Source: Psammoneis japonica (lineage: Eukaryota). From it: a stretch of 64,000 nucleotides of DNA. A program made the position numbers and the translations under genes. The DNA is taken from positions 1-64,000 of the forward strand of contig QPGO01000036.1 in NCBI GenBank assembly GCA_008632985.1, in the 5' to 3' direction. The notes under the pieces were generated by a model. The model had not been told where the DNA came from. It worked only from the letters and a program-made list of their open reading frames with translations, and made no database searches. This document shows positions 2,110 through 64,000 of the stretch, piece after piece (the stretch's first letter is position 1; every line of letters starts with the position of its first letter).

Positions 2110-4060
2110 TAAATGGGTTGACAATCAAGCAGTGATCGGGTTTGCCAACATTTCCAAAAATGTGACAACAAAAATTGCATCACTCAACAACCAACAACAT
2201 CTCAAGAGATGGAAACAAGAAAAGTGACTCCTCTTTGCACTTGAATTAAAAGAGACAACAATGCACAACAAACATTTGAGAAGGACAAGAAGCTCTTGAA
2301 TGCATGGAACCAGAAGAGAGTCAATGAATCGCTCTTGTTTTGAACCTCTTGACCTGTTCTGTCCATGATGGTGGTTGGTTGAAAGGTTGGTGGTGGTTTT
2401 TTTATGTGACTTGCAGCTTGAGGCATGTTGATGCATGAACACATGGCCCATGTGTGGTGTCACCTTTGGAAAGTGCCACTTGTGGAGCTTGAGTGGACAA
2501 CTCTCTGTGCTCAAGCTTTGTCCGCCAAATGCTCCATCAAAGTCCAGATGCTGCCACATCCCACCCGACCATTGACACAAAACAGTTCTTGCAAAATGTT
2601 GTTGCCTGTTTCCCTCTTCCTCTGCAGAGCAGCCCTCTTGGCGACAGTGCTGCCCACATGCCAGAATGTGCTCAAGAATGCTTTCCATTTTGCCAGCAAA
2701 GATGCCCAACGCGGGGCTGTGTGGGCTCGAATCTCTCTCAAGACAAGCTGACATTTGTGCCTGGCACTGGCGGCAATGCTGAGCCCTCCTTCCTGTTTGA
2801 CTTCCCAGGAGTGTGCCCAGATCTCCTGCGTGCTGAGTGGCTCAACCACAAGAGTCGCTGTCTTTGTCAGTTTTGTCAGCAGGATGTGCCAAGGCTGCTC
2901 TGGCCATGTGTGCACAAGGACAGCTGCGACAGGCTTTCTGCTGTCAGCAAAGAGTGTGAGCTGGCTGGACTGCCCAACCCCACACTTCACAGCTCCTTGG
3001 CAGTCACTCCAAATCAAGTGCCAACTTGGGGTCAACCGCACCTGGCTGGTTGCAATGCAAAGACAGCTGTGGCAGCACTTTGTGACAACAAAGAGAGTGC
3101 GAGCTGGCTGGGCTCCCAACCCCACACTTCACAGCCCCTCAGCACTGGCTCCCAATCAAATGCCAACTTGGGGCCAATGGCTGTGAAGCCATCATTGCAA
3201 ATCCCTGTGCCTGCCCCCTCACACAGCTTTGCACAGGGTCAACATGTGTGGCCTTTGCAAGATGGGCCCTGGCTGGCTGCTGGCTCCTCAGCCACACGGC
3301 TTGCACAACAAGCCACCACAACACAGAGCACTGTGGGGTGAGTGCAGCACAGCCCAAACAAGCACACCATGCTGAGATCACCCAGAGTTGGCTGCTGTCC
3401 TGGGGCTCCATTCAAAGCTAAGCTGGGCTGCTTGGCTCCTTGGTGTGCAGCACATGCTTGGCATCACATTCTTGTTGCCAAGCAGCCACATGGCATGTGC
3501 CCACCATTTGTGCCTGCAACAGCGACCCCAGCCACAAAGAAGCCAACAAAAAGTTGAACCTGGTTTTGTGGTTGAAGAGTGAAGAAACTGTGAGTGAAGT
3601 TTGGTTCAAGATTTGTTGGCAATGCCAAGTGGGCAACCAAAGAGAGGCACCAAAAATGGCTGTTCTCGCTCATTTCTCAAGAGGAGCTTGCGCTCATGAT
3701 GCAGGGTCTGAAGCAAGCACCAGCCAAGACAACAGTTTTTTTCTCTCTGCCCTGCTTAAAACACAGCCTTTGAGTCAATGTGGTGCTCCTTCAACAACTC
3801 ACGCACACTGGGAAGAGCAGCTGGAGCCAGGGCAGCTGGCCTGGCAGGGCTTGGCTGACACCCAAGCTGGGCTGCTCAGCCTGGTGGCACACACTCAGTG
3901 CCACATTGTCACCCTCCTGCAACTGCAATGTGCCCCACTCTTTGCACCTGCAGCAACCACCCTGGATCAAAAGAAGCCAGTGCAACTCTGGCCATGGTTG
4001 CATGGTCAATTGTGTGTGTGTGTTCAACGGTTGATTCCCCTCTTTTTTTCTCTTTTCCTT
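2110..4060. mobile_element. Degenerate repeat/transposon domain, TpA- and CpG-depleted
   Basis: Only 4 TpA counted in about 1.9 kb, none in 2405-3418; TG/CA-rich; overlapping Cys/His-rich, Tyr-free ORFs in all frames; family not identifiable. Confidence 0.6.
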
Positions 4061-4209
4061 TAACCGGCCACGAACATGAAAAAATTGCCGACATTTCAGA
4101 CATCATCTACATCTGCACTTTATCATCCCCTGTCCTAATCATTCAGTAGCTACTAGCTAGAGAGAGTAAAGACAAAGACAGGTTGTGCTTGGTAGTAGAG
4201 TTGTTTCTC

Positions 4210-15686: not shown

Positions 15687-15986
15687 ACTCGCCGCCATTA
15701 CCTCTCTATCACTAGAGAGGCTAGTATTATCTGTAACGATTTTAAAAGAGAAAGAACCGTGTTGCGTACAAGTACAATACTTGTAGGCTAATCATGGCAG
15801 TTTCTTGATCTTGCTCGATCTTTTTCAGATCAAGCTATCGTTAAACACTGTTGAATAGCGTATTGAGCGATAAAAGCAGAAACTGGTATCCAGATAGAAC
15901 GCCCCTCTGACTCTCATGGAAAACGGGAAAAAAGTGAGCTTGTCGATTTTGTGAGGTGTCCGCGTTACCGGTCATCTGAATAAGCT

Positions 15987-16527
15987 GATCGAGAGGTTCC
16001 CGGCTTATGGATACTGCTACGGTAGCATCTTGGGACCAGGCAGTCGACTCTTGACCAAATGAGCAACATTAGGATAAGGCATGTAACCAGGACTTGCTTC
16101 TCCCGTCATTAGCGCTCCTGATGACAAAAAGCTTTTTGTACTAGGAAAGTGGGCGAGGTACCATTGGAGATTAAAGAAGGCGTGATACTTTAAGAGAGAT
16201 TAGATAGGGTTGTTGCGCAATAATACTCACACTTTCTGAGAAGGCGTTGACACGTTGACGTACCTTGAAATAGTGGATTTGCTTTTCGTTTGCGGGTAGA
16301 ACCCGTGGATGACCAGTCAAGTAGTGATAGAGAGAGCTGGTACCGCATTTCCCGGCTCCAACAGTCGTGAAACCTGGGAGGCAGTAGCCACTCAGATCAG
16401 GCTTTGGCACGTCAGAAAGAAGAGCGGAGTGTCGAGGGATCTCATGACACTCTAGCTTCAACGGGTCGTCGCGTTGTTGTTTGATAAGATTCGTCCAGTT
16501 ACATTAGCTGCTTCTTGGGGGTGGGTA
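15987..16527 (-). pseudogene. Partial inverted duplicate of the sulfotransferase gene at 34450-36102
   Basis: Reverse complement matches about 34779-35309, including the 76-nt intron; lacks both gene ends. Confidence 0.9.
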
Positions 16528-16960
16528 ACACACAACGGGTGTCGGGTGGTGCAGGTGTTGGCTGCTCACGCTGCATGGACCTTGCTCAGACCTCGCTGCT
16601 CGCTGCACTCAGACCTCGAGCCTCGTCGCGAAAATCTTCGCTGCGAGTCACGAAATTGGTGTTCGCAGTTGGAGATTCTGGGCGTGTGCTCCTTTTGTCT
16701 CCCTTCCTTGGCTGGAATGTGCTGCCGGCACCAATGGGCTGTTGGTTTGCACGATCTTTTCGATCCGTCGAAGGGCGATTCTCCCCCCCAATCAGACAAA
16801 CTGAGCTCACCATTACGACGTCAAGTGCTTGTAGTGGGCCTGCGATCAGCCTCTTTAGGTGGTTTGCTTGCGCGTCGCTTGGTGTGGAGGGTGATGCAGC
16901 CGGTGCTCATGGTTGGTTTTTGCGGTGTGCATGTGATAGATGTGATGGTGCTTATTGTTA

Positions 16961-17475
16961 CTGTAGAGTGCGCGAAACGTCAGAATTGCGCGTTGGCGAA
17001 AACCACAACTTTTTTTTCTCTCCTCCCGCAGCCGCACATCCCGAGTTTTGCAATTGACGACGCTTTTGGCCTCAAACGGCGGCGAACAAGGCATCGGTAG
17101 AACCGTAATCATTGTAAGAACATGTGTATTGCTTTGTTTGTGAAAATCCGTAATGAATTCGTCGAGAAAAGTGAGTCTCGTAGTCGTTTTGCGTGCAATT
17201 TCGCGTTGGGTGTTCCCGAGAACGCGATTGCTTTTTCGATTCAGCGTTGTCCTTGTACGGAGAAACGCTGAATCGCAGCTTTATTGTAACACATGTCTTG
17301 CCCATGTGCTGGATCTTGGGATGCGTCTGTCTCGGCGTCACGACAAATCGTTTTATTGCTCATTTTTTGGCCGCTGCTGTGTGTTGTGTTTGCCAGAGCT
17401 CATTGTTGTTGCTTCAAAGAGGATCCGCTCCGGGCTGTCCAAGGCGCGGAACGTCTCTTTGTTGTGTTTAAAAGA
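16961..17475 (+). repeat. Left terminal inverted repeat (515 bp)
   Basis: Reverse complement of 19031-19544 with 14 transitions and one homopolymer indel. Confidence 0.95.
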
Positions 17476-17528
17476 CACGTTCTAGATAGATTAGCTGGAC
17501 AGAGCACAACTGCATGTTTTAGTCTAGT

Positions 17529-18887
17529 CTAATGTGACACAGCTGCTCGAACAGCTGTGTTGAATCCTCCAACACAGCTGAGGAAGAATTCTTCCTCAGC
17601 ATCCCCCGTCTTCCTTTCCTGATTGTCATCGCACCCTGGCACCCCACACTTGCGAAAACAGTTCCTAGCTTTTCGTGGCGTCATCTCTTCCAATGCCAGC
17701 TCGTGCACCATTGACCAATTCATGCCTTCTTCATGAGAAAAACGCTTCAGGCCGGACTTGCAAACAGAGAAGCAGTGCTCAATTGGATTCAAATCAGGGC
17801 TGCAAGCTGCTGTGTAAACTGGCTTGGCTCCAGCATCTTCAATCAGTTGTCGAACGTAGTCAGAGATGTGTGTCGATGCGTTGTCCATCAGCACCACAGA
17901 CCACGGCTCGCAAAGATGATGCCTCCCTGGAACCGGCACCAAATCATTCTCAATGCATCTCTCAAACCTTTCCATGTCCACAGTCCCACGTTCCGGGTCA
18001 TTGTCATGAGGGCCATGTTCACGTTCTGCCAGCGTGCACGCTTCGATCACAAAACCGTTTGCATCTGCAGCACCAACAACGGCGCACCTCTTGCGAAAAT
18101 CTTCCTCAAAATGTGCATCAACTGCGGGTGGTTTGCCAAATTTTCCCCAGCCACGCAAACGCCTGGATGCGTTGGCACTCTTTGCCGTCTCATCAACAAA
18201 GATGGCCATCTCTGGTTTTTCTACGAACAACTCCAGCCGTCGAAAGCACCTCTCCCGCTTGGCCTCGCATCTTTGTCTTGAACGAAAAACCATTTTTTGA
18301 AGAGAGCAGCCCAGTCGGTGCAATTGACGCCACATGGCAGAGGGGTGCCATGTCACACCCCGGCGTCGTCTCATTGAAAGCTGCATTTCATCGAGATGGA
18401 GATGCGGCTTCTCTCTCACGATGTCAAGCAGCACTTCATCATCCACCTCTGAAAATGATGCAGCTCTTGTTGTCACTCTGCAATGCCTTTTCCAGCTGTT
18501 CATTCTACGGCGAGCAGCAGCTTTTGTCTCACCACACTGAAGGCAGTGGTGAAACCAGTCATAAAATGTCTTGCACTTGATCCTCCGGCCAAACATCTGA
18601 TCAACTTCTTCCCAAACAGATTTGAGAAGACGGATTTTCCCACCATCCTTCTGTGCATGCTGCCACGCATTGTCCCCCAGTTTTTCCATTGCAGTCTCAA
18701 CATGCTCCTTCTGCAGTTTCTTGTCGTCGTGCGCTGCACCGCCATGCCGTCCAGGTGCATTCGGCCTGTTGCATGTGTGATGCCGAACTCCGGGAGCAAC
18801 CCAAACCCCATGTGTCATGTCCCATCTTTGTGCCTCTCCAAAATTGTTGCCCTCCCCCGCAGCAAACAACTCAGCTGCTGTTGCCAT
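17529..18887 (-). CDS. DD34E transposase (DDE_3/IS630-like), hypermutated
   Basis: Motifs IFVDET, VLMDNASTH, ACSPDLNPIE (34 residues between second D and E); HTH region PHLHLDEM...RLGCS; conserved Tyr positions appear as Cys/His. Confidence 0.9.
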   Translation of the reverse strand: MATAAELFAAGEGNNFGEAQRWDMTHGVWVAPGVRHHTCNRPNAPGRHGGAAHDDKKLQKEHVETAMEKLGDNAWQHAQKDGGKIRLLKSVWEEVDQMFGRRIKCKTFYDWFHHCLQCGETKAAARRRMNSWKRHCRVTTRAASFSEVDDEVLLDIVREKPHLHLDEMQLSMRRRRGVTWHPSAMWRQLHRLGCSLQKMVFRSRQRCEAKRERCFRRLELFVEKPEMAIFVDETAKSANASRRLRGWGKFGKPPAVDAHFEEDFRKRCAVVGAADANGFVIEACTLAEREHGPHDNDPERGTVDMERFERCIENDLVPVPGRHHLCEPWSVVLMDNASTHISDYVRQLIEDAGAKPVYTAACSPDLNPIEHCFSVCKSGLKRFSHEEGMNWSMVHELALEEMTPRKARNCFRKCGVPGCDDNQERKTGDAEEEFFLSCVGGFNTAVRAAVSH

Positions 18888-19030
18888 GAGACATGGAAAG
18901 GTTGTTGCCACAGTCAACACTCGACAAAGCCTGCACTTCAAGTGACGAGAAAAAGGCAAACATGCCGTTAGATTGGCGATGATTTCACGACGCCAAGATC
19001 CCCGTTTTGAAAAATTCAAAGCAACGAATC

Positions 19031-19544
19031 TCTTTTAAACACAACAAAGAGACGTTCCGTGCCTTGGACAGCCCGGAGCGGATCCTCTTTGAAGCAACAA
19101 CAATGAGCTCTGGCAAACACAGCACACAGCAGCGGCCAAAAAATGAGCAACAAAACGATTTGTCGTGACACCGAGACAGACGCATCCCAAGATCCAGCAT
19201 GTAGGCAAGACATGTGTTACAATGAAGCTGCGATTCAGCGTTTCTCCGTACAAGGACAACGCTAAATCGAAAAAGCAATCGCGTTCTCGGGAACACCCAA
19301 CGCGAAATTGCACGCAAAACGACTACGAGACTCACTTTTCTCGACGAACTCATTGCGGATTTTCACAAACAAAGCAATGCACATGTTCTTACAATGATTG
19401 CGGTTCTACCGATGCCTTGTTCGCCGCCGTTTGAGGCCAAAAGCGTCGTCAATTGCAAAACTCGGGATGTGCGGCTGCGGGAGGAGAGAAAAAAAGTTGT
19501 GGTTTTCGCCAACGCGCAATTCTGACGTTTCGCGCATTCTACAG
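19031..19544 (-). repeat. Right terminal inverted repeat (514 bp)
   Basis: Inverted copy of 16961-17475. Confidence 0.95.
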
Positions 19545-19810
19545 TATACAAAAATTGTGTGGGATTCTACGCGGGTCTCCCTGGTCGCGGAATAGGGAAC
19601 AAAAGAAAGATCCGGACCGGACGTGACATTTTTTGGATGGGCGACAGGCGACAGGCGGCACAGTTACAAGTTCATTCAATCACAACTAGCCATCGCGAAG
19701 TAAGTGAGAGGAGTGAGGAGTGAGAGAGCAGGCTTAATAATTTGCGGGTTGCGGACTTGGTGGCAGAAGCAAACTGCTTATTCTGACGCCTCTCCCGCTT
19801 TCGGTCTGCA

Positions 19811-21657
19811 ATGACTCGAGAATACAGTGTTGCTTTCTTCAGTGTCTTTCGATTCATTCTGGTGATTCCTGCGTTATTTGTGGAGTCCACTTTGCCAGCA
19901 TTTTCCCACCGACACGCGACATCGAGCGCATTTTTGTCTGCTTCAAAAAGCTGCGCTTCTAGCAGCAACACCCGGATCAATATGGTCCGCTCTAAGTTAT
20001 CGTTCGGTTCTACGTCGCTTAAAGAAGATGATTTCAATACCACGATTTTGGTGGGCAAGAAAGAGAGTCTCTTAAGCTTCGTCCCTGGCAGACTGGATCT
20101 TGACTCTGATGTATCCACAGCCATGTTGGACTCAGTGTCTGGACCCAAGGGTAGCAGTGTTTCCACCTTTGGCGGAAAACCTCCCAAGAAGTTCGTTTTC
20201 TGCGTCTTGCCAGAGAAGACAACACGAAACAACCATCCCATGTCGGTGCACACCATCACCTCGTTGCTAAAGTCATCCTGTCCGGGCAAGGGAAATATCA
20301 AAGTGGTGATTGTGTCAGAAGAGCAAAAGGTTGCTCCTCTGGCATGCGCTGTAGGAAAGGCGTTTCCCGTATTCACGGAGAAAACTAGTGGGAGCGATAC
20401 TGATCAAGAGGTAGAGCGCGAAGTTGCAGTCAGTTTCGTAGACAAAGATGGTGCTCCCGTTGAAAGCCAAGACGTTCTCAAGGCTTGTGAGGCCGTGTCT
20501 GATTCAGTGCGTTTGGCGGCAAGACTGATGGATATGCCCCCCGAGCAACTTACGACCACCGCCTATGCAGAGGAGTGTCGTCAACTCGTAAAGGATTTGC
20601 CTCATACCACCATGCTTGAGATCACGGGCAAAGATCTCGACGAAAAAGGGTACGGCGGCCTGTACGGAGTTGGGAAAGCTGCTACTTATCCGCCACGCAT
20701 GGTGATCATGACGTACGACCCTCCGAACGTTGACAAGGAAGAGCCCGCTGTGGCTCTGGTCGGTAAAGGAATTGTCTATGACACTGGGGGTTTATCCCTC
20801 AAGGGGAAAACAGGTACGATCTTTGCTAGCAGTCGCAATGCCTACTAACGTGATCTCAAGCAGCGCCGTTAGCCAATAATCTCCGGTTTATCTCACGATA
20901 TAACAACCAAACTACTGTATTATAACAGGCATGCCAGGTATGAAGCACGACATGGGGGGATCGGCCGGCATACTAGGAGGATTTTGCGCAGCCGTCAAAT
21001 TGGGGACTCCCAAGAAAATCACATGCATCTTATGCTTGGCGGAAAACGCCATTGGCCAAACGCAGTCCGCAACGATGACATCTTGAAAATGTACAGTGGC
21101 AAGACAGTGGAAATCAATAATAGCGATGCGGTGCGTGCTTTTGGTTTTGCAGCCACTTGTACTTTGCAATAGTATCTCACAACCTAATGTATTTTTGAAC
21201 ACAGGAAGGACGTCTAGTCTTAGCAGATGGAGTCGCACATGCTACAAAACATATTGAGGGACTCGGTCTAGTCATGGACATGGCAACCTTAACAGGAGCA
21301 CAGCTCGTGGCGACAGGGAAAAAGCACGCAGGAATCCTGGCCAACACGGAGGAATTAGAAAAGCAAGCAGTGGCGGCTGGATTATATTCTGGCGACCTTT
21401 GCTTTCCACTATTGTATGCGCCGGAGCTTCTCAAGGACGAGTTCAAGTCAAAGGTGGCTGACATGAAGAATTCTGTCAAGGATCGTGGCAACGCCCAGTC
21501 TTCCTGTGCTGGTCACTTTATTGAATCTCATCTGCACACTGATTACAAGGGTGGATGGTTGCACGTTGACATGGCAGGACCAGGTACGCTGGAGGAACGT
21601 GGTACTGGCTACGGAGTAGGGCTGGTTGTTGCGGTATTGGGAGCTCCTGGATTCTAA
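19811..21657 (+). CDS. M17 leucyl aminopeptidase (NPEPL1-like), two introns, probable 1-nt frameshift near 21057
   Basis: VGKGIVYDTGG, MKHDMGG, NNSDA/EGRLVLADG, DMATLTGA, WLHVDMAG. Confidence 0.9.
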
Positions 21658-23479: not shown

Positions 23480-23853
23480 TTTGCTGCTGTGCCAATTTTT
23501 TCTTTGTTCCCTGCCTCCGAAAATGTGGCGCAGAAACCAGCCAAGTTGAACTTTGAGCTCCGTGGTACAAACGACACTAGAAATCTTACATACGTAAAAA
23601 CCAGTATCTTTCCCCGTAGTTCTGTTCCACGCGGCGGTGCTTGCGTATGCTTTCAGCTTCTGGACAAACCAACACACAGGCAAGAGAAAGATGGAGATCG
23701 CTCGATGCTCGATGCTCGATGCCAGATGCCAGTGAAATAAATGCCAACAATGGCAGTGAGCAGAGTGGCGGTGTTGAAAACAGCAGACTGTTCACAGGGA
23801 CAAAGAAGACTATCCGATAGGTCGATTGAAGATGCGTGTTTCAGAAACTTAGC

Positions 23854-25553: not shown

Positions 25554-25565
25554 CAAACTTTCTTC

Positions 25566-34449: not shown

Positions 34450-36102
34450 ATGTATGCCTCCGAGGTGGACAGAAGGCGGTCGAGATACGTTGTCGTGCTG
34501 GTGCTAGCGCTGGCGATCGGCGTGGTCTATTTCACGCTGGATGCATCGACAACGTCAACTCGGGGCGGTATTTTGGGCTTGCGAAGTCAAGGAAAGCACC
34601 ATGGATGGTCAACTCCCCAAGCAATGCCACAAGAAGTAACATCGCTATATTCGGAGAATGATTTATTGAACTCTAACGGGATTACGCCTCCGTTCTGGCC
34701 CAAGCACTGGAATTGTTCTGCAGAGTCGGAGGACGAAGGCGTCTGTTCCCCTCCCCCGTCGAAGACATGGGGACCCTGCTACCCACCCTCGAGAAGCAGC
34801 CCATATAACTGGACAAGTCTTATCAAACAACAACACAACGACTCGTTGAAGCTAGAGTATCATGAGATCCCTCGACACCCCGCTCTTCTTGTTAACGTGC
34901 CAAAGCCTGATCTGAGTGGCTACTGCCGCCCAGGTTTCATAATTATTGGAGCCGGGAAATGCGGTACCAGCTCTCTCTATCACTACTTGACTGGTCATCC
35001 ACGGGTTCTACCCGCAAACGAAAAGCAAATCCACTATTTCAAGGTACGTCAACGTGTCAACGCCTTCTCAGAAAGTGTGAGTATTATTGCGCAACAACCC
35101 TATCTAATCTCTCTTAAAGTATCACGCCTTCTTTAATCTCCAATGGTACCTCGCCCACTTTCCTAGTACAAAAAGCTTTTTGTCATCAGGAGCGCTAATG
35201 ACGGGAGAAGCAAGTCCTGGTTACATGCCTTATCCTAATGTTGCTCATATGGTCAAGAGTCGACTGCCTGGTCCCAAGATATTAGCAATAGGCCGGGAAC
35301 CTCTCGATCGATCTTGGTCCTCCTACAAGTACAATTACGTTATTCCTGCAATGGAGAAGCTTCGTAAAGGCCACCACAAGGGTGCGCTTAGAGGAAAATC
35401 AGAAGATTACTACCAGAAGTTCCTCTTTTCTTTCGAAGACATGATTGAAGCCGAACTGACGGCGTTGAAAGAATGCTTGGCACCCGGTGGCATTGGAGAG
35501 ACTGGAGCGAGGAATTCATGGCGTTCAAAACCTTGGTTCAAGGATGAATTCGACCGGCGTGAGAAGGAGGGATTGCCCCCGTTGGTTGACTTGGACAAGT
35601 ACTGCTATCCGAATACCCGGTCCGCAAAGGTCCCGCGCCGACAATGGGTTAGTTTGGTTGAGAAGCATCCCGAAAAGATTATCAATCTTCCCAACTTGCA
35701 GCTAGTCCAAGCCATTATAGGACGCTCTCTCTATGCACTTCCTTTGGAGTGGTGGTATGCTACTCATGGGGAATCTGAAGTGTACTTTGTCTGCACAGAA
35801 GAACTGGAGGATGAAACGGGCGAGCCGTTGAATGAGATTGCAACCAAGTTTTTGGGGTTACCTTCCTATGACTTTTCTCAGGTTGTTAGCGAGGGCATGT
35901 ACAATGTGGGATACAACACAGGTTACGATCAAGCTACAACGTGGGAGGTGGTCGATAGCATGGCGATAGCCACCACAAAGGGAATTCACACAATCAGGAC
36001 GACATTCCAATTTCGAATGAATTGCGAAAGGAGCTTTTAGATTTTGTGAGACCATTCAACGAGCGTCTCTTTCAACTAACTGGTAAACGTTGCAACTGGT
36101 GA
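34450..36102 (+). CDS. Type II membrane sulfotransferase (heparan-sulfate/NDST-like Sulfotransfer_1), intron 35044-35119, frameshift near 35960
   Basis: N-terminal TM; 5'-[37 protein letters not shown]; alternative-frame C-terminus [23 protein letters not shown]. Confidence 0.88.
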
Positions 36103-37351: not shown

Positions 37352-37665
37352 GATGTCGACAAGTACAAGTAGTGAACATGCAACAGAGATGAAGCTTTGT
37401 TAACACACACAGTATGATGTGCGCCTTATTTTACTAGCAGGTCTACTAGTCTACTTCTACGATTGGCCATTGGCGGTGTGCGGTGTTTGTGTTCTCCTTT
37501 GGCCCCTGGTCGGGGGAGGGCTTTGCCCGCGCAGCGCACCGCTACCCGCTATCCACTGCTCTCTACTCTCTAGCAGTGGATAGCCTCTACTCTAGCTCTA
37601 GAGCCAGCCACTAGAGCAGAGAGTAGAAGTAGCTAGCTAGCAGAACTCCACTCTAGAGAGTAGAC

Positions 37666-40600
37666 TCACTGTCCTGCCGGTGCAAACCTCTGGTCCTTGT
37701 TGTCACAACCCCCAAAATGAAACCCCCAGCTGGACCCACAGGCTGTCACTTCTTCCACTGCAAAATGTGCACCACAGGCATGCATCATGGCACTTGTTTG
37801 AAAGCCAAGCACAGAGCTGGGGCGACGTGCCAGAGGCGCCAAAAATGATCTCATCTCCCGCGCTCATCTTGCTCCAGCCCAAGGAGGTGGCTTTGACTGC
37901 AGCAGCAAGAGGAAATGCAGAGTCCAGAGGAGCAGAGAATGTGACACCAAGCACCCCACAGGCACCCCAAGTCAAACTCTGGTGGACAGGGTGCAAACTG
38001 CAGCACTGACCTCAGCTCCAACAAAGCAAGTCAAGAGGCAGCACAATGAGCCACAGAGAGAGAGCAGCAGACAGAGCCGGGCAGCCATCTGCACATGACT
38101 CTGCAGCAGATGACAATGTGTTGTCAGCTTCAGGGATTGCAGTCTTCAACAGTTTGTGAGGGTGTGTTGGCATTTGGCTGCAACAACATGTCAAGTGAGC
38201 ATGAAGAAGAGAGAAGAGCACAGTCACTTCATTGTTCATTTGTGCAGAGTTGAAATGATGGTGCCACATTCTGTGATGATTGATTTCAAGTCAGCATCTC
38301 CCAGACACATTCCTGAGTCACCAGATCCTGCCATCACACATGCACACACACACTCTCTTGCACAACTTAGCTGCATTCCCTTCTTCATCACAATGATGAT
38401 TTGAAGCTTGCTCTGCAGTCATTGGTTGCCTGGTTTGGCAATGCATGTCATTTGCTGTGCAAAGTCTTCTTGAGCTTCCTGCAACAAAACCCCCAGCTTT
38501 CTTTGCCATTTTCCAGTCATTTTCTTCATGTGCTTTATGCTGCAGTCTGCAGCTTTCTTCTGTTGTCTCCCAGATGTAGTGGGGTCAAGATGGGGCTCTG
38601 AACAGCACAACTGGGGCCAAGTCAAAGGTTCATGGCTTGCCAACTGGCAAAAAAAGCCAGCAACTCATGCAGTGCATCTGCAAGAGATAAAACAACAAAT
38701 GTGCTAGATGTGCAACAAACTCTGGACTTGCTGAGTTGGCAGTGCACAACAAACCTTTTGCAAATGATGATGTCATCTGATTAAAAACAAGATCAACCAA
38801 AGCTGTGTTTTGTGCATGACAATTGACCCAACAGACAACAACACACACGTCTGTGAATTTGACCTCATCAAGATTTCAAGCATTGCATGTAGAGTGAGGC
38901 CAGATCCACAGACACTTTTGTGCACCATGCAACCCCTGTTTCTGACATTGTTGCATGCATGGTGTTCACTTCCAATGGTGCATTCCCTCTTTAATTTCTT
39001 CAAAAAAGCAGCCCAAGTGCCACAATGCATTGCTCTGTTTTCCAGAAAATGTGTGATGTTTTTCCCTTGGTGCCAAATTTCCTTCACCAGCATGCATTTG
39101 TTGTCAAACAACAAACTGTGGTGGGCACTGAAAAATCAAAATGATGTTGCTTTCATGGGTTGGAAGCAGCACCATGTTGGCAATTGCAAGGACTGGTGCC
39201 AGCAAAAGGTGAGACTTGTGCAACCAACAATGGAGTCAAAAATGTTTTGCAAAAGATTGTGCGTGCTTGTGAGAACTCGTGCAGGCTCAAGTGTCTGCTC
39301 TTCACATGCAGCTGAGCTCTTGCATGGCTCTTCTTGGAGATTGTCTGCACGGCATGGCAACAGCAATTGGAAAGAAATCAAGAGCTTCAAGAAGTGGCAT
39401 GGATTCTCTGCAGGGACTTTGAGAAGGGATTGCAGCACACAGCTGTGGACTGACTGTGGCCCCGGCCATTTGCACTTTGAACAAAAAACTTCAACAAGGT
39501 CAGTGACTTTTCAAAAAAGTGTTGGACTTCCAGTTTTCATCTCAGCCACAGATCTCAAGGTCCAACACAGTTTGCTCAGAAAAGCAGCAAGCCTTCAATG
39601 GTTTTAACTTGAGCAGGTCCAACAGTTTTTTTAAATGCTTGACCTCCATGGTTTTTGTGTGGACCTCAGATCTTGTCAAGGGTCAGCAAATCTTTTTAAA
39701 AATGTGAAAGATCTTCATGGCTTGCATGCCCTGACATCAGACATCAAAATGTGACCTCCAATGAGCCAGATCTGCAATGATTTTGTCTGGCCTCAGACAT
39801 TGAGGGACAAAGGTTTTTTCAAAATAGTGTCAGACATTTGACAGCTTTCATCCAGACCTCAGAGACCTTGAGATCCAACTGCTTTTTTCTAAATGACACA
39901 CCAGACCTTTGACAGTTTTCATCTGGACCTCTCTAACCTTGAGGCATGTGGTGGTTTTGCAAAAAGGGCCACAGACCTTCAATGGTTTTTTGTTTGAAGC
40001 TCAGACCTTGAGGTCTGATGTTTTTCTCAAAACAGCAGCACACCAGACCTCCAATGGTTTTCTTTGTCTGCACCTCAGACCTTGAGGTGTGATGTTTTTT
40101 TTTTCAAAACAATCTCTGATGGCTTTGGTCCAGAGTTCAGACCTTGCTTCAGGTGTGACAGTTTTTCAAAACAGCACCAGACCTCTGATGGATTTTGTTT
40201 GGACCTCAGACCTGAAGGCATCATGTTGCTTTTTTCAAAAAAGTTTCAGACCTCTGATGGTTTTTGTCTGGACTTTGGGTCTGTGTCTTTGTCCAAATGT
40301 CCCACTCCGGCATGTTGAGATCCCACCTTGAGCCAAAGTGCATCATGTGCGAACAATGCCCAGCCTGACAGCATTCAGAGGTTGCAGGCCAGGCATTTCC
40401 AATTGTTGCCATTCTTGGCTGTGCATCACTCACAGATTCCAAGTGGCTTTCCAACTTTTCCAAGCAGGTTCTGCATCATTCGCAGAGATGTTCAATTTGT
40501 CCAGCAGGCGCCTGCTGGGTTTTGCTGCATCTCTGCTTGATTTTGGCATTGGGAACAAATCACACAGCACCACCTCATGCAACTCTCTCAGCACCCTCTC

Positions 40601-41140
40601 TGCTCACACTTTGTTTTCTTGAACAGTTTTGTGCAGGTGCAACTTTTTGTGTTTTGGTGCAGACACAAAGGCAGCCACAACAAATGTGCAAGACACAGCG
40701 TTCTAAAAGCCATTTGGACAATGAACACACAACAGCTTGAACCTAATCTGTGGGACAAGGGACAAGGTCATTGAAGACATTGGAGCTGAGGACAAAGTGT
40801 CAGTTGTCAACTGCCGCAATCTGCAGAGGACTCTGTGCCAGCAGCCATCCATCACACCCAATGCTCTCAAGGTTGTTTCATAATTTCAAAAGCCTGGGAA
40901 CTGCTGGAGGTGCCCCCAAGATGAGCCACAACCCATGCAAAGGTGCTGTTGTAACACATTTTAGCTCTGTGGGCACAACACTCCTTGCTGGTCTAAAGCA
41001 TTTGCAGTTCTCTTCTCATGGCGGCCTTCCAATTGTGAATTGTGAGGATGTCACTGAGGCGGCTTTTGACCGAGAATTTTTGCATTGCCATTGCACACTT
41101 TTGTGACTTCTGTCCCAGCATTTTGCAATGGATCCCTCTT
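37666..41140. mobile_element. Degenerate DNA-transposon domain (possibly hAT-like), TpA/CpG-depleted
   Basis: Near absence of TA and CG; internal 60-bp tandem array; minus-strand remnant WVNCHAQNTAL resembles the hAT CxxH motif (weak). Confidence 0.55.
39490..40280. repeat. Degenerate ~60-bp tandem array, about 12-13 units
   Basis: Consensus-like cagacctctgatggttttgtctggacctcagaccttgaggt...ttttttcaaaa recurring. Confidence 0.85.
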
Positions 41141-50110: not shown

Positions 50111-53100
50111 TCAGGCAGCTTTCTCAGACTTGTTGAAAGAATCCCTTTGCCCGCTCTTTTTGATGGGTGGGATGCAACTGTAAAAACTCCTCCCATTGTG
50201 ATTCTGATGGCACCGAAAAGATGTGCTTTGCAAAACATGGTGAATGGTGAGAAACTCTTTGAATCGCTGTGAAGCGTGCGCACTGGTTTGTTGTGATGTC
50301 GGTCGTCTGCGCATGCTTTTCAGGCGACCCCAGTGGGAAGATGGCGCAGGTCTGTCCATTTGCAAACACCAAAGGACCCCGATTCAATCGACCTCCACCT
50401 GCCTGGACAGTGTGCCAACTGACTGTCCACAGTGACTGTTGATGCTGTGCCTTTGAGACAACAAAAACCTGCCATCATGCTGAACACAGTGCCAGGATCA
50501 ATTCAAATTTCACACGCACAGCCTGCGGAATTGCGCGCGACAACCACCCCTTGTTCGCACTGCTGCATTGACTGCACAATGTCCACTTCTCACTTTTTTC
50601 TGACGATTTTTGAAATTGTCACAATGTGCACCTTTTGTTTTTTCTCCATTTCCTGTTTATGTTCTTTTTCCCACTGCCACCTTCTGTCCATCCCATCTGC
50701 ACTTCTGGGCCAGCCTTTTTCTCCACACTGCTGCCCCTTCTGCTCTCCACTGCCAGCCCCAGCCACCACACATGCTTGTGCTTTTCCCCCAAACCATGCT
50801 GGCAACAAGAAGAAGCAGAGCATGTGAAAGAGAAAAAAAGCTGCTGTGGCTTTTGGGCTGGCAACAACAAGCTCCCCAAAGCTGTTTGGGCAGCTTGCAG
50901 ATCTGCAAACATTGCCTTCACAGTTGCTGTCAGTTTTGACAAGAATCAAATGCAAAAGACCAACCTGCCAATCTTTTTGGAGTTGTCCAGCTTGCTGCTG
51001 CAAAGTTTTATTGCTTTGAGTTTGTGGTGCTGCCAGAGCTGTTTGGAGATCTTCTGAAGCTCTGGTGAGATTGCATCAACCCAGCTGAAAAAACAATGGT
51101 GGGTTGTGGCATCTTGTTGTTGTGACTGCCACTTGTTTCTGGCGGCATGCTGCACACCATTTTCAACACAAACAGAATTTTGAATTTTTCTGCCCATCAA
51201 ATTGAGTCATCAACGGATGTGGAAACTCTTCCCTTTTTGCAATTTTTTTTCTTTCGAGTTCTCTTTGGAACTCTGCAGTGGTGCTGGAGCAACTTGAGGG
51301 TGTTCAGAAGCTCTGATTTTGCAAAACAACACAAATCAACATGAGTGGCACATTGCTGCAATGGCAGTTGGCACCATGTTTTTTCCCACTGAATCTTTCA
51401 AATGTGCTTCTCTTGCCTGTTTTCTTCATTTGGTGGCACCCTTGTGGTCTGATCTGATGTTGCTTCTCATGGTGACTTGTGTTTCATTGTCAAAGAGACA
51501 AGTGGAGCTCTGCACACACTCAGGATGTGGCCCAAAAAGCTGGGTGCAAAAATGGAAGAGGTCCAAGATTTGGGTGTGTCCCCAGCCCTTTTCTTGAAGA
51601 AATCACCCCAGCTTCTGTTGGCTTTGCCTGACTTTTCTTGTGGCCCGATCTGGCATTGCTTCTCATGGTGACATGGTCTGTTGCTGTGGAGCCTTGGTGA
51701 TCAAATTGTTCTTGAGCAGGATCCACATGTGAGGGCTCTTGGAAGTTTTGCACCTTCATGCCCCGTGGTGCCATGGGTGCACCTGCTCCATCTCTCAGAC
51801 TGTCCCGGGCTGTGGCTCTGGCTGTGGGCATTGTTCTGATTAACTGGCCAGCTGGCACCCTGTGCTGCAGAGACATCTGCTCCATCTCTCAGACTGTTGA
51901 GCACTGTGGCTCTGGCTGTGGGTGTTCTTTTGATGGACTGGCCAGCTCACCTGTGCTTCTTTGTCAAAGAGTGATGAGCAAAGCTCTGCACACACACTCA
52001 GGATCTTGGGCTGGTCCCATCACAAGACACCAAAATGGAGGAGGCTGAAGATTTTAAGATCATGCTAGGCCTTGCATTGAGAAAGAATCAAACCATCTCA
52101 GTTCCCCCACTGTCTTCGCTTGCTGTCCCCCCCTCGTGGTCTGGCCACATTTCTCATGATGATGGTCTGTTGCTGCAAAGCCTTGGTGGTGGTCAAACTC
52201 ATTTTCAAGCAAAAGCCACATGGCATGTTTCATGAGTTGCACACCTTCACGCACCACAGATGCTCTGAAGAACCAGCAGGCCTGCGGGGAGCATTGATCA
52301 CTTGTCTTTTGTTGTGGGTGTGTGCCGTTGGGCGCTGCATTGCCCGTGCGTGTGCAGGTGCCTGCCGTTGGGGCCAGCATTGCAGCAGCAGAGTGGTGGG
52401 GCCGCCTCACTGGCAACACAGAGGACCATTGTGTTTGAGAGCTCATGCCAGTTTTGGGGCTGCAGCGCGGTGCACGGACACTCTTTTTTGTCCAACTTGC
52501 CGACAAAATGGTGCGCTGCACAAACTCACTCATTTTTTGACATGTTTTTCCCAGTGTGACTGTTTTGTGTGCAATTCATCACAAATTCTCTTCACACAAA
52601 GCTCAATGCATTTTTCAACATGCCATGCCAGCAATCCCAATTTTGCGGTCCTTTGGAGCTCTTCTGAAAAACAGTTCCACGCCCCCACAGGGAGGGAATT
52701 TGTTGGTTCTTTTGGGAAGTCCCTGTGACCTCCAATGTCCTCAATGATCATTCGCTGAGTCCGAACAATTCATTTGCACTGAACAACACATGCTGTTCCA
52801 AAAAACATCCGAGGGACACACTTTCAAATTCGGACCGACCCCCGACTGCCCGACTGCCCGACCCCCCGACGGACACAAAAAAGAAAAAATTGTCATGCGT
52901 GATGCATGGCGCATGGGAACAACTTATCGGCGACTGGCGTGGTGCCAGCTCAATGGAAAAATTCAAGTCAGAAGTGTAAAAAACATGCCAGAGCCTGCGC
53001 CACTGGTGGCGCAGAATGGTTCAGGGTGCACACAAATTTTGTGCCACAGTGGCGCATGTGATTTTTGTGCGACACTCTACACGCGCCCAGTGGCGTAGAC

Positions 53101-54425
53101 CCAGTGCAAAAACAACAAATTTTTGAAGTCTTGTGGCATGCAAAGTCAGCATGTTGTGGCGTAGATTCGACATCAACAAGGCTTCACGCAACACTCGCAA
53201 CAACCAAGACAACAGAAAACCGCTCGCAAAATCTCGCTCCCACTTCACACATTGCAGCTGATGTGGTGTTGTTCATTTGTCTCACTCGTTTTCATCGTGG
53301 AACCTCCTGATGACACAGGGTGTCTTTCAGGCATGTGCATCGGTCTGATTGCCCCCCCTCTTTGGGCAAGAATGGGGTGTGTGGTTTGCTTTTTGAAGAC
53401 ACCAGACCAGCCACAAGGATGAGCTTGCAGTGGAGAGCTGGCAAGCAAAGAAGCACTGGGCTGTGCCACAAGGCACTGGCTGATGGGACAGCATTGGGCA
53501 AGCACAACCACAAGCATTTTCCTGAGGGCACTTTGCACCACATGTGACAAAGCCAGAAACATGGACTGAGAAACACAGACAGAGCCAGGTTTTGCTCAGC
53601 TGGCCACCCAGAATTCAAGCAGGGGTGCAGCCGGAATGAAGAAGGCTGCAGGTCAATTTGAGGTCCCAGTGGGAACTTGCTTTGCATGTTTGTTGACAGC
53701 CTGCTGCAGAAGCCGTGGCTGCACTGGAAATCCAAAGGTGGCTTTGCGTGGTGGGGAGGATCTCGCAAATTCTCTCAAGATTTTGCGACGCATGAGGCCA
53801 AAATTTGGGTGCAGCATCCACAGATGCTTTGGGAGAGATGCTGTGAATTTGTCAAGGCAGGCACTTCTGACAGCATGGGTGGGGAAGGCCAGTGCTTGTT
53901 GCCAGGGATCTTTGTGAAGATCTTTTGAAGAGGATGACACTGCATTTTCTCGCTTGGAAACTTCAGAGAATTGTTTGAACACAGTGGGGCCAAACCCGCC
54001 AAAGTGTGCATTGAATTTTGGAGAACAAAGAAGACACAAATCCGTGGCAGTGGCCACCAAGCTGGTGGGGCAAGGCTTGGAAAACAAGCTGCCCAAAAAG
54101 CCATGATGGGCTGGCAGCAAAACACTCCTCACAAAAGATGCCACTGTCAAGCTGCCACAGACTGGCACAACTCCACAGTTCTCCAGCATGCTGTGGGAGC
54201 TTTGCTGTCAAGCATGTAAAACCACAGCACCTCAAGTCACAGACAAGCTGCTTTGCAGGCAGAAGCCCAGCCAAGGGCCGCAAGTCAACAGCCCCACAAT
54301 GTCTTCTCTTTTTCTCCTTTTTCCTTCTTTTCCTCTCTCTCTTCTCCTTTTCTCCTTTTCAGTTCATTCTTCTGGGCCGCCTCCGGCGGCCACCTCTTTC
54401 ATTCTTCCCACATGCCGAAATCTCG
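49990..54425. mobile_element. Nested degenerate transposon domain, TpA-depleted
   Basis: Extreme TA depletion; internal diverged direct repeat; subterminal-like motif clusters at 52824-53165; many spurious Cys/His ORFs. Confidence 0.6.
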
Positions 54426-61893: not shown

Positions 61894-63025
61894 GATGAGT
61901 ACTAGCTAGTTGTCGTCATCGGGGCGTGCTTCTTGCTTCAGCATTCCCTCTCGGGCTTCTCTTCACATTTTTTGAGCCTTGTTCTCTCGTTTTTGAGATG
62001 ATGATGTGATTCTTCGCGAAAGTTACCGTGCGGTGACACTCACGGACTGAATCCAGTCCATGCGTCTACTCGAGCTACTACTCTATGGCATCCTAGTGGG
62101 GGTCTAGCTGGTGCCGCTGGTGCCCACACCAAAGAGACAAACCCACAACAAAAGGCAAAAACAATGGTCCTCAACAAAGTTCCTAAGAATGGCCACAGTT
62201 AAATGTGGGCAATCTGTGAGTCACACCACCCAAAATGAGAAGCAAGACCCCCCCTCTGGGTGCCCTCCTCCTGCCTGCCTTGTCCCCCTGCCCCCTCCTG
62301 ACAACACCATCACCGCAGCTGATCCAACACAACTGAGAATGTTCATTGGTCAAATCAGCTGGAGTTGCAGCATCAAAGATGGGAAGTGGAACATGCCACA
62401 TTGCCAAAAACCAAAACACTTGATGAGGATGGCCAGCCAGAGTTTTGGACTTTCTCCGCCAATGCCAAGGGCAGCAACACAACCCCAGTGTCGGGTTTGA
62501 TTTGAAGCAAAACAACACAAAGTGTCAACTGCCACCCTTGGAAGAAAAAATTTCAAAAACCATGGTTTGCATCCAAAGAATGTGACGAAAAGAAGGAAAG
62601 GAGCCTTGCTGAGTGAATGAGCAGGGACAATGACAACTTCCACACTCTCTGTTGAACAAACCATTGGGGAAGCTTTTGTCAGACAAGGGACAAAATGCAC
62701 TCAAAAGAAGGATTTTGCTGAGCTTGTAGAATGTCTCAGCAAAGCACCTGAATGCACGAGCTTGGAGACTTCCATTGATGCCAACATTTGTGGCCCACAA
62801 GCTGCGCCATCATTGCACATTGTGAAGGAATGGGGAGGAGGACAGGGCAGCACCTTTGAGGATCTGCTGCATGGTTTTTTGGACTGAGAACTTGGGCATT
62901 TGTCTGAAAACTGGTCCTTGATCTCTCAGCTCCTTGGCCCATCATTTTCCTCAAGCTCAAGCTGCCAGGAAAACACTGCAAGGCCAACAAAGGACCACGA
63001 TGAGAGTTTCCACTTGAGGGCCAAC

Positions 63026-63347
63026 TGCAGCATGCATGCAGACAAAAGGTTATTTTTGTCACGCCCTTTGTGACATTTAAACTGTAACACGTCGCCGTGA
63101 TACATTAACTCTTATTAGTAGCTGTATATTGCACTCCTCCCCATGTATCACGCGCAGAACTAATGTGCACTGACACTGCACGTTTTTGGCGGAACAGTGT
63201 GGGTACGTACAAAGGAACATACAGAACTGCACAGAGTTTTACGCGTTCGACAGTGATCAACGTTGCTGCAGACAACTCCCACTCAGGGTTTCGAACCCCT
63301 GGCCTCCTGCCTAATGGTCACGCATTGAACCACTCCGCTATGAATTC
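63026..63347 (-). mobile_element. tRNA-derived SINE-like element
   Basis: Minus-strand head gaattcaTAGCGGAGTGGttcaatgcg...GGTTCGAAACCctg with Pol III A box (63330-40) and B box (63287-97); cloverleaf imperfect, so not a functional tRNA. Confidence 0.7.
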
Positions 63348-63460
63348 ATAATGCAGCATGCATGCAGACAAAAGGTTATTTTTGTCACGCCCTTTGTGAC
63401 ATATAAACTGTGACACGTCGCCGTGACACATTGACTCTTGTCAGCAGCTGTGTGTTGCAC
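63026..63460. repeat. 109-bp direct repeat (63026-63134 and 63352-63460)
   Basis: tgcagcatgcatgcagacaaaaggttatttttgtcacgccctttgtgaca... occurs twice, with 9 differences. Confidence 0.95.
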
Positions 63461-64000
63461 AACCTCTTCATCAGCAGCAACACAGCATCACAGCAACATT
63501 TGGTTTTTTGATGCACATGGGTGCACTCACATGGCACCAACCAGTGAAACAAATGAGCTGTGTTGTGATCTTCCAGCTGTGCAGATTGCTGATTTTAAGG
63601 TTCAGCTCTCCATCTCCAGTTCTCTGAATGGGACAAAGAAGCTGCAGTCTCCTCCAGAAATGCCTCACCTTGATCTGCCTCTTCCAAGCCAGAGCACTCT
63701 ACTTGCTGATGACTTGTTGCATTTTTCAGGTCCATCCTTGGGGTTGCTTTTGTGCGGTGCATCGTGCGGCATGTCACACAAAGCTGCTTCAACCACGACC
63801 AGATTTGAGAAGTTTGTTTTGGTCAATCAGCTCGGAGCCACTCCTTCATCCCAGCAGAGGCCACAGGGCCTCATTTTTCTTCCAATCAAATCATCAACCA
63901 GCAAAAAGCAGCCACAAGTGGCTGACAATGATCTGACCTCAGCAGATGCACTGCACCCGGTGCTTCTGGCATGTCAGAAAATGACAGAACTCCCCTCTTC

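Follow-up and report, generated by a model that had tools for sequence, protein, structure and literature searches.

The closest described system is that of the chlorarachniophyte Bigelowiella natans, where integrated NCLDV and virophage DNA undergoes A:T-to-G:C hypermutation restricted to TpA (Mettrop et al., bioRxiv 10.64898/2026.01.13.699255). In the mutation-accumulation lines described there, 230 of the 231 hypermutations were of the A>G or T>C kind, and these all lay on TpA; de novo mutations arose at some 1e-7 to 1e-6 per site per generation, and only in a part of the lines. The main target is single-copy and the signature rests on Illumina data. The preprint further describes 124 clusters of TpA-poor, CpA+TpG-rich windows in the genome, an enrichment of DDE-superfamily endonuclease and reverse transcriptase domains among TpA-poor coding sequences, and the authors' proposal of a TadA/ADAT2-like deaminase, with no enzyme identified (bioRxiv 10.64898/2026.01.13.699255). 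Our literature search for TpA-specific A:T-to-G:C hypermutation turned up only this preprint of 2026, which deals with a single rhizarian alga, and no report of such hypermutation in diatoms. An earlier note on the diatom DNA considered here knew of no description in diatoms: our searches agree with this, while the phenomenon itself already had its description in B. natans.

The window, meaning the whole stretch of DNA analysed, is 64,000 nucleotides of the diatom Psammoneis japonica (contig QPGO01000036.1). In it a transposon copy and four stretches of 1.7–4 kb probably bear the marks of a mutational process that acts locally and changes TpA to CpA/TpG, with host genes spared; the reading draws on a single member of the family within 64 kb of genome. 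The whole element, TA duplications included, is at 16959–19546, and its parts are as follows.

16959..16960, no strand: left TA target-site duplication, the TA lying immediately outside CTGTAGAG..., with the mirror image at the right end
16961..17475, plus strand: left terminal inverted repeat (TIR), with 13 TpA and 43 CpG, flanking TA included
17529..18887, minus strand: transposase ORF, open, 452 aa, with DDE_3 and weak HTH matches and the motifs DET / MDNAS / SPDLNPIE
17577..17600, no strand: perfect palindrome of 24 nt (a self-match), overlapping the last codons (3' end) of the transposase ORF
19031..19544, minus strand: right TIR, with 10 TpA and 41 CpG, flanking TA included
19545..19546, no strand: right TA target-site duplication, read from the sequence and the repeat search

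Repeat search paired the inverted arms as 16959–17016 with 19489–19546 and 17011–17475 with 19031–19495; they measure 517 and 516 bp and are 97.099% identical over 517 columns (BLAST). The ORF matches PF13358 (DDE_3) at an E of 2.6e-17 and 63.5 bits (cut-off 28.6), its HTH_33 and HTH_32 matches both being under their cut-offs, and D232, D335 and E370 are invariant across an alignment of the window protein with nine relatives. These sequence features place the element, with its TA duplication and 517-bp TIRs, among the Tc1-like DNA transposons (IS630/Tc1/mariner, DDE_3). In JGI metagenomes neither a protein-based scan nor a search with a degenerate TIR pattern gave further copies or relatives.

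The earlier note had described the internal region as one where TpA is nearly gone and CpG kept, and had added that this is not the decay of 5mC. Both statements agree with the counts: the observed/expected ratio (o/e) of TpA is 0.14 in the internal region and 0.09 in the transposase coding sequence, where that of CpG is 0.71 and 0.68, respectively. The loss can be read in the protein. Relative to the nine aligned proteins, to which it is 42–53% identical, the window transposase has 3 Tyr versus 15–24, 24 His versus 9–15 and 19 Cys versus 2–10. Ten alignment columns are conserved for Tyr, in the sense of having it in at least 7 of the 9 relatives, and the window protein retains just one of them, whereas of the remaining conserved columns, 163 in number, it retains 140 (Fisher P=8e-7). 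The nine lost tyrosines are now 7 Cys (TGC/TGT) and 2 His (CAT), the very residues reached by a change of TA to TG or CA, and at further conserved columns Ile has become Met (ATG) or Thr (ACA), Val has become Ala (GCA) and Leu has become Pro (CCA). This outgroup test, together with sequencing-run contigs that read Tyr at three codons, supports for the coding region of this one copy the direction that had been claimed, TA to CA/TG (A-to-G on either strand). The transposase ORF is still open because A-to-G or T-to-C never makes a stop from a sense codon; the transposase is probably dead despite it.

The two arms provide a young record. Their global alignment has 14 substitutions and one 1-base indel (T8 versus T7), and every one of the 14 is a transition (P=0.0037, assuming two thirds of changes to be transitions). 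At seven sites TA in one arm faces CA or TG in the other (left-arm offsets 147, 168, 192, 283, 323, 344 and 396), and with one adjacent TG-versus-CA swap (offsets 346–347), scored as 2, the TA-type changes come to 9 of 14; three sites are of the AA/AG or TT/CT class (offsets 9, 198 and 425) and two of the CpG class (377 and 487). The all-transition count of 14 and the 9/3/2 tally had been given in the same form before, and our alignment reproduces them exactly. Only 19.3% of TIR positions are such that a transition there would exchange TA for CA/TG or the reverse, which serves as the null, and about 2.7 such changes are expected; the binomial probability is 2.9e-4 for at least 9 of 14 and 0.0095 for at least 7 of 14. 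The 5 non-TpA differences of the 14 make TpA enriched rather than exclusive, part of them being expected as background. Two arms by themselves cannot give direction, for which outgroups are required. With the direction of the coding region applied, the TIR differences too would run from TA to CA/TG, the left arm having taken 3 hits and the right arm 6, after insertion. The TG-versus-CA swap is in keeping with a single ancestral TpA having been hit twice, independently; 0.63 visible swaps are expected between the arms, versus 0.024 double CpG hits. The uneven strand distribution of the hits (7 T-to-C versus 2 A-to-G in TIR orientation) has no significance. Many of the surviving TpA are in GTA, in sites too few for a flanking preference to be called.

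Contigs of two sequencing runs, X1 and X2, bear on the same direction. Those of X1 with at least 80% likeness, compared over 15900–19700, are read as sibling copies. Where the window has TGC, CAT and TGT at codons 39, 385 and 410, X1 contigs have TAC/TAT (Tyr). Over 15900–19700, 40 of the 342 differing places are listed; among the 33 of these inside the element there are 12 at which the window has CA/TG and the contig TA, and 0 of the reverse. The only TIR site among the 40 of 342 is 17306, at which both covering contigs have A and so TA, provided that 17305 is unchanged there. The differing places of run X2 comprise 20 C>T and 25 G>A versus 2 A>G and 4 T>C. No RNA run was among the matches listed for the region's sequence.

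Could the TA be real throughout, with a modified base in silenced regions misread as CA/TG by long-read consensus? Such an assembly or base-calling artefact would suit the fact that all X1 contigs depart from the window at 17175, 17292, 17295, 17306, 17735, 19211 and other positions, several of them reading TA, that of the 31-mers sampled from 16500–20000 a fraction of only 0.54 is present in X1, and that the divergence of unique-flank contigs from the window is about 1%; the places where every contig has TA and none the window letter leave room for assembly error or strain difference. However, the X1 contigs represent a multi-copy family, and contigs drop rare variants, being proof of presence and not of absence; 49 of the 168 X1 contigs are, moreover, at least 99% like the window. 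The arms differ despite identical local sequence, whereas a systematic miscall should affect both, and what would be needed is the miscalling of nearly every TpA and most CpG, on both strands and over kilobases, with adjoining genes untouched. The Illumina basis of the B. natans signature, as the preprint gives it, also speaks against a misreading of this sort, which we consider improbable.

Other repeats of the window give two more comparisons.

63026..63134, plus strand: 109-nt direct repeat, copy 1, with TpA at all 8 transition differences
63352..63460, plus strand: 109-nt direct repeat, copy 2, with CA or TG at those 8 sites, all in 63412–63454, the 5' half keeping TpA
15987..16530, plus strand: 544-nt dispersed repeat, copy A, just left of the transposon
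34777..35309, minus strand: 544-nt dispersed repeat, copy B, 93% identical to copy A

The 109-nt pair has 9 differences, 8 of them transitions and each of these TA in copy 1 versus CA/TG in copy 2. A hit over part of the length of one copy looks regional, and the main target in B. natans is single-copy; the choice of repeats for being repeats, put forward in the earlier note, stays a hypothesis. The 544-nt pair is more mixed, with 25 substitutions, 21 of them transitions, and 7 of the 25 of TA type, the TA always being in copy B; at these 7 base positions (6 TpA dinucleotides) copy A has CA/TG or CG. Most differences between its copies lie outside TpA.

Beyond the transposon, a scan of TpA o/e within the 64-kb window finds the pattern to be local: transposon and four islands are low (0.03–0.16 in island windows versus a background of 0.61), and host genes are ordinary (0.41–0.60 in 11 host ORFs).

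2404..4061, no strand: TA-free island of 1658 bp with 2 TpA, a CpG o/e of about 0.1–0.2, and (CpA+TpG)/(ApC+GpT) of 2.06
37662..40704, no strand: TA-free island of 3043 bp with 14 TpA, a CpG o/e of about 0.1, and internal degenerate tandem units of 69–74 nt
50182..54217, no strand: TA-free island with 10 TpA in 4036 bp and four consecutive 1-kb windows that satisfy published thresholds
62201..64000, no strand: partial TA-free island, running off the window, with 25 TpA in 1800 bp

The longest TA-free runs are 1016 and 1055 bp, where the probability of no TA in 1 kb is 5e-19. By the published thresholds for 1-kb windows (Rho TpA no higher than 0.43 together with Rho CpA+TpG of 1.52 or more, a cluster being at least 3 windows), 12 of the 64 windows satisfy both, in which there are two clusters, 38001–41000 and 50001–54000. 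All four islands have an excess of CA/TG and, in contrast to the transposon, low CpG; they may be older products of the same process from which CpG has also been lost, presumably via 5mC. As to what they once were, the 120 ORFs scanned (127 reach 110 aa, the 7 inside the element being left out) gave no Pfam family in the islands, 24 translations in six frames, read through with stops written as X, gave none at E<=0.001 (one Haem_bd match, at E=0.042, being below its cut-off), and no TIRs or LTRs were found at island edges. A 282-aa island ORF had zero matches among 1.84 billion representatives and a 278-aa one no usable Atlas match. A tRNA-like stretch near 63290–63350 was considered and rejected, ARAGORN calling no tRNA within the window.

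Composition also distinguishes this footprint from that of fungal RIP, to which the earlier note had called it the opposite. RIP products have a TpA/ApT index above about 0.89; the value is 0.26 in the element, 0.04–0.09 in three islands and 0.26 in that of 62201–64000, the ratio (CpA+TpG)/(ApC+GpT) is 1.5–2.1 in element and islands, and no 1.5-kb window of the stretch has a TpA o/e above 0.99. For a RIP-like cytosine deamination of CpA to TpA, which would make TA the derived state, it may be said that two sequences alone do not give direction, and that in X1 the contig has T/A versus C/G in the window at 146 places and the reverse at 92. Yet TpA is depleted here, the Tyr outgroup test makes TA ancestral, and C-to-T from either state cannot give a TG-versus-CA swap; the idea is scarcely credible, and the contrast with RIP stands.

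Nor need a mutator be invoked at all if TpA poverty were compositional or selected, for instance to keep clear of the TA sites into which the family inserts or of RNases that cleave at UA, with the TIR differences being ordinary transition-biased decay. TpA is low throughout the window, as the background value has it, Tc1-like elements insert at TA, and the TA duplication is present here. But TA avoidance would not swap 9 of 10 conserved tyrosines of a catalytic protein; relatives with 15–24 Tyr show that TA poverty is not inherent in the family, TA is retained at the same codons by the contigs taken for sibling copies, and the islands are without domains or conserved ORFs on which selection could act. 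That 9 of the 14 young differences fall on 19% of the sites is, besides, the effect of a rate and not of an equilibrium. We regard the absence of any special mutator as very improbable, and a local process acting on TpA is the reading that we retain.

What such a process would consist of is A-to-G change on either strand at TpA, far faster than other changes and limited to particular stretches. Adenine in DNA at 5'-TA would be deaminated to hypoxanthine and read as G at replication, the deaminating enzyme perhaps being TadA/ADAT2-like. By analogy, enzymatic adenine deamination at 5'-TA by a deaminase of that type is the likeliest chemistry, though we think it less likely than not. TpA is self-complementary and sequence cannot separate T-to-C from A-to-G, which gives an opening to chemistry on the thymine side, with a modified T at TpA (5-hydroxymethyl- or 5-formyluracil, TET/JBP-type) mispairing with G, or to polymerase-eta-like repair at WA. 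T-to-C is the change that 5-formyluracil favours, the 5hmU of dinoflagellates is concentrated at TpA, and the errors of polymerase eta fall at WA, the context of 12 of the 14 TIR changes if these are read as A-to-G. In somatic hypermutation, however, about half of the A:T changes made with polymerase eta are transversions, whereas there are 0 among the 12 WA changes here and 8 of the 9 differences of the 109-nt pair are transitions, making the WA-to-WG polymerase-eta idea of the earlier note a poor fit. These routes taken together seem unlikely to us. An ORF at 23853–24335 has a deaminase domain, but was set aside as a candidate mutator: taken together with the following ORF it resembles, by its motif, a RibD-type riboflavin deaminase.

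More speculatively than the adenine chemistry itself, TpA hypermutation may possibly be an old genome defence common to distant SAR lineages, in which a natural DNA adenine deaminase would mark silenced mobile or foreign DNA regionally, not by repeat homology, and faster than 5mC decay. The same footprint in a diatom DNA transposon, with its direction supported, suggests a widespread process and not a curiosity of one species, and adds ordinary transposons to targets so far known as viral inserts. CpG decay lags behind the process, TpA having been lost in the transposon while CpG was kept. If a natural adenine deaminase is indeed responsible, it would be Nature's own counterpart of engineered adenine base editors, and diatoms, with their good genetic tools, are tractable hosts in which to find the mutator. 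There is a lesson for annotation as well: because such mutation cannot create stop codons, an open ORF is uninformative about activity, and the open transposase ORF here is no sign of it.

How, then, does the locus stand beside systems already known? With Tc1/mariner transposons the element has in common DDE_3, SPDLNPIE, a gap of 34 residues separating the second Asp from the Glu, the TA duplication and TIRs; in contrast, its nearest protein relative is only 56% identical and 9 of 10 conserved Tyr are gone. Hyper-editing by ADAR, known as a metazoan family, is also A-to-G only, prefers U or A 5' of the edited A and has long inverted repeats as its classic substrate, but it acts on RNA, and a cut-and-paste DNA transposon is without an obligatory RNA stage to carry edits into DNA. 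RIP of Neurospora and other fungi shares dense transition-only mutation of mobile DNA, the killing of the gene, a dinucleotide footprint and clustered hits; it turns CpA into TpA and raises TpA/ApT, whereas both direction and target are reversed here.

The likeness to B. natans, as far as the preprint's text allows comparison, goes further. Shared are the change of TpA to TpG/CpA on both strands by transitions only, the hitting of particular stretches with the remaining genome ordinary, and a long-term footprint of clustered TpA-poor, CpA+TpG-rich 1-kb windows with DDE-superfamily endonuclease genes among the TpA-poor coding sequences. B. natans is a rhizarian and the host here a diatom (a stramenopile); the target there is a viral insert and here a cut-and-paste DNA transposon with direction from an outgroup test; de novo mutations were measured there, whereas here the process is known from its footprint alone. 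Exclusive to TpA in B. natans, the changes are enriched at it here, with 9 of 14 in the TIRs, 8 of 9 in the 109-nt pair and 7 of 25 in the 544-nt pair. The islands are also low in CpG, a term that a search of the preprint's main text did not return. By analogy across these differences, the diatom process would be the one that has been measured directly in Bigelowiella natans.

The segment 16959-19546 is a DNA transposon. In a repeat search its inverted-repeat blocks abut (16959-17016 with 19489-19546, and 17011-17475 with 19031-19495), and with BLAST they merge into a single 517-column match of 97.099% identity, the two terminal inverted repeats (TIRs) being referred to here as its arms. The features that define it are:

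16959-16960 and 19545-19546, outermost TA on each side, reading as a TA target-site duplication
17529-18887, minus strand, open transposase ORF of 452 amino acids lying between the arms

The transposase has a Pfam DDE_3 match at 2.6e-17, with helix-turn-helix matches that are weak and under their cut-offs. D232, D335 and E370 (motifs DET, MDNAS and SPDLNPIE) are invariant in its alignment with nine relatives, and the second Asp and the Glu are spaced by 34 residues, which we take to be the Tc1 arrangement. Its relatives were found in marine metagenomes and in MMETSP transcriptomes, the closest being just 56% identical in a search of 5.8 billion clustered proteins. A perfect 24 nt palindrome (17577-17600) overlaps the last codons at the 3′ end of the ORF, and the TIRs (16959-17475 and 19031-19546) are CpG-rich, with an observed/expected ratio (o/e) of 1.36-1.46.

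Globally aligned, the arms differ by one 1-base indel and 14 substitutions, every one of them a transition. Seven oppose TA to CA or TG, one adjacent pair opposes TG to CA, three are changes between AA and AG (TT and CT) and two set CpG against TpG or CpA, reproducing exactly the tally that the earlier note on this DNA had made by eye. Since a transition can interconvert TA and CA/TG at just 19.3% of TIR positions, 9 of 14 being TA-type has P=2.9e-4, and 7 of 14 has P=0.0095. The near loss of TpA from the interior with retention of CpG, also noticed earlier, is borne out by o/e values of 0.14 and 0.71 respectively for the internal region; for the transposase coding sequence they are 0.09 and 0.68. 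Given this enrichment among the arm substitutions and these ratios, the observation is real and non-random, and it is confirmed. Polymerase eta error would fit the WA context of the changes but should also yield many transversions at A:T, and there are 0 among the 12 WA changes in the arms. If the changes are read as TA to CA/TG, three hits have occurred in the left arm and six in the right since insertion, or ~0.28 hits per TpA per arm, ~27-fold the per-base rate elsewhere in the TIRs. TpA retained in both arms is mostly preceded by G (GTA), in numbers too small for a context preference.

Sliding windows and TA-free runs delimit four further stretches, of 1.7-4 kb each, that are nearly devoid of TpA:

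2404-4061, TA-free island with 2 TpA
37662-40704, TA-free island with 14 TpA
50182-54217, TA-free island with 10 TpA
62201-64000, TA-free island with 25 TpA

The longest runs wholly without TA are 1016 and 1055 bp, the probability of 1 kb without TA being 5e-19 at the background frequency. The islands are rich in CA/TG, with (CpA+TpG)/(ApC+GpT) at 1.8-2.1, and unlike the transposon they are CpG-poor (o/e mostly ~0.1-0.3, with a maximum of 0.65 in individual TA-free runs). Within them there is no Pfam domain in ORFs or six-frame read-through, protein database searches with their ORFs found no homologues, and no terminal repeats were found at them; in the diverged tandem units that they contain, CA-versus-TG swaps make up 7 of 85 substitutions.

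The window is otherwise gene-dense, with intron-split genes for a ceramidase, an M17 peptidase, an ion channel, an HCF101-like protein and AMP-binding enzymes, and 11 host ORFs have TpA o/e of 0.41-0.60 and CpG o/e of 0.81-1.14. The named matches inspected among 120 listed for the HCF101-like protein are all diatoms at 63-74% identity (including Seminavis, Entomoneis, Nitzschia, Cylindrotheca, Pseudo-nitzschia, Odontella, Thalassiosira, Amphora and Mayamaea). A PseudoU_synth_2 (pseudouridine synthase) domain occurs in two paralogous segments, 25556-26467 and 30834-31732, that are 69% identical. One gene has a deaminase domain:

23853-24954, plus strand, two overlapping ORFs with a cytidine/deoxycytidylate deaminase domain and HAE and PCxHxGxTPPC-like motifs

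Those motifs read, we presume, like the RibD-type deaminase of riboflavin synthesis, and the gene was rejected as an ADAT2/TadA-type mutator.

Two arms alone cannot polarise the change, as a RIP-like CpA-to-TpA process would leave identical differences. The protein offers a first guide. Compared with its nine relatives, the transposase has 3 Tyr versus 15-24, 24 His versus 9-15 and 19 Cys versus 2-10. In the columns where at least seven of the nine relatives have Tyr it retains 1 of 10, whereas among the remaining conserved columns it retains 140 of 163 (Fisher P=8e-7). Of the lost tyrosines, seven have become Cys (TGC/TGT) and two His (CAT), the only outcomes of a transition inside the TA of a TAY codon; further changes in conserved columns are of the kind that such transitions would give (I to M, ATG; I to T, ACA; V to A, GCA; L to P, CCA). 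A-to-G and T-to-C changes cannot turn a sense codon into a stop, and therefore the ORF is open despite the loss of 9 of 10 conserved tyrosines; an open frame here is no evidence of transposon activity.

A second guide comes from Logan contigs of three coded sequencing runs placed on 15900-19700 at 80% likeness, one of which, X1, gave 168 contigs. We read the divergent X1 contigs as other copies of the transposon family in the same organism. In a sample of 40 listed from 342 differing places across 15900-19700, the window has CA/TG and a contig TA at 12 of the 33 listed inside the element, the reverse occurring at 0; at codons 39, 385 and 410 X1 contigs have Tyr where the window has Cys, His and Cys. 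Either a mistake of assembly at modified bases or a difference between strains is kept in consideration, though as quite improbable, because at several places no placed contig has the window's letter and X1 contains just 0.54 of the stretch's sampled words. However, contigs drop rare variants, the arms share local sequence yet differ, and kilobase-long complete loss of TpA and CpG beside untouched genes is hard to obtain through miscalls.

To return to TA as the ancestral state, the TG-versus-CA swap between the arms is what would be left had a single ancestral TpA been hit twice independently: from 9 losses over 32 arm-sites the expected number of visible swaps is 0.63, and under a CpG origin that of double hits is 0.024. 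The TpA/ApT ratio is 0.26 both in the element and in the island at 62201-64000 and 0.04-0.09 in the other three islands, and TpA o/e is never above 0.99 in any 1.5-kb window. A CpA-to-TpA process would enrich TpA, yet TpA is depleted, and so composition too supports TA as the old state. At the TIR sites themselves the direction is what we infer, apart from one site; at 17306 both covering contigs have A, which makes TA if 17305 is unchanged in them. Protein, sibling copies, swap and composition together give the direction as TA to CA/TG.

Two other repeat pairs reproduce the result from the TIRs. The first is a direct repeat of 109 nt (63026-63134 and 63352-63460) whose copies have nine differences, eight of them transitions; at each of these eight copy 1 has TA and copy 2 has CA/TG, and they all lie inside 63412-63454, while the 5′ half of copy 2 retains TpA. 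Copy 2 looks to straddle the edge of a mutated tract, and therefore the targeting seems to follow region rather than homology. The second is a dispersed repeat of 544 nt (15987-16530 and 34777-35309) whose copies share 93% identity; transitions account for 21 of their 25 substitutions, and in the seven of TA type TA is always in the same copy.

Some incidental features of this neighbourhood may be recorded. At 16362-16379 the sole X1 contig at locus A of the 544-nt repeat has the five letters of copy B, which could reflect a short patch of gene conversion or else a T>C/A>G cluster that arose recently in the assembled strain. A contig of another run, X2, omits 76 nt (16188-16263) whose minus-strand ends are GT..AG, so that X2 may derive from RNA and include a spliced transcript that runs through the repeat to the left of the transposon. 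The left flank at 16662-16915 has high contig depth, and 16527-16814 lacks TA altogether. The transposon is skipped in three X1 contigs (depths 49-92), which join 16929 or 16944 to 19547-19550 with 8-18 other letters in between, and may represent empty paralogous or allelic sites.

Within one element copy and 64 kb of genome, the process is local, directional, TpA-centred and of transition type; it acts on mobile DNA, spares host genes and outpaces CpG loss. The earlier interpretation, a repeat-targeted ‘reverse RIP’, was largely right as to direction and localisation; its repeat targeting and mechanism are unproven. The chemistry may be adenine deamination at 5′-TA, which fits a spectrum made up of transitions alone and its symmetry between the strands. 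It also fits the context of a U before the A in substrates of TadA/ADAT and ADAR (10.64898/2026.01.13.699255). A modified thymine mispairing with G is not separable from it by sequence, and ADAR-type RNA editing was rejected as being without a route into the DNA of a cut-and-paste transposon.

The earlier note knew of no such description in diatoms. We found none in open-access papers and bioRxiv, and in passages of a diatom DNA-methyltransferase paper (PMC9998398) RIP appears only as fungal background. Absolute novelty has been overtaken by a 2026 preprint on Bigelowiella natans, which in its main text is silent on both diatoms and CpG (10.64898/2026.01.13.699255). In its mutation-accumulation lines 231 of 302 nuclear point mutations fell in two regions, one from an integrated giant virus and the other from a virophage; 230 of these 231 were A>G or T>C, and all of that type were at TpA, at ~6e-7 per site per generation and in some lines only. 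DDE-superfamily endonuclease domains and those of reverse transcriptase are over-represented in a subset of TpA-poor CDS, and its authors propose that an ADAT2 homologue deaminates DNA adenine (10.64898/2026.01.13.699255). With its thresholds 12 of 64 windows here pass, clustering at 38001-41000 and 50001-54000; the islands match the published B. natans clusters in this respect, and the finding is therefore of the same kind rather than a new one. The host, however, judged by the HCF101-like protein, is a diatom or close relative and not B. natans, and apparently no earlier case is on record from a diatom-like genome, involving a DNA transposon and including an internal test of direction.
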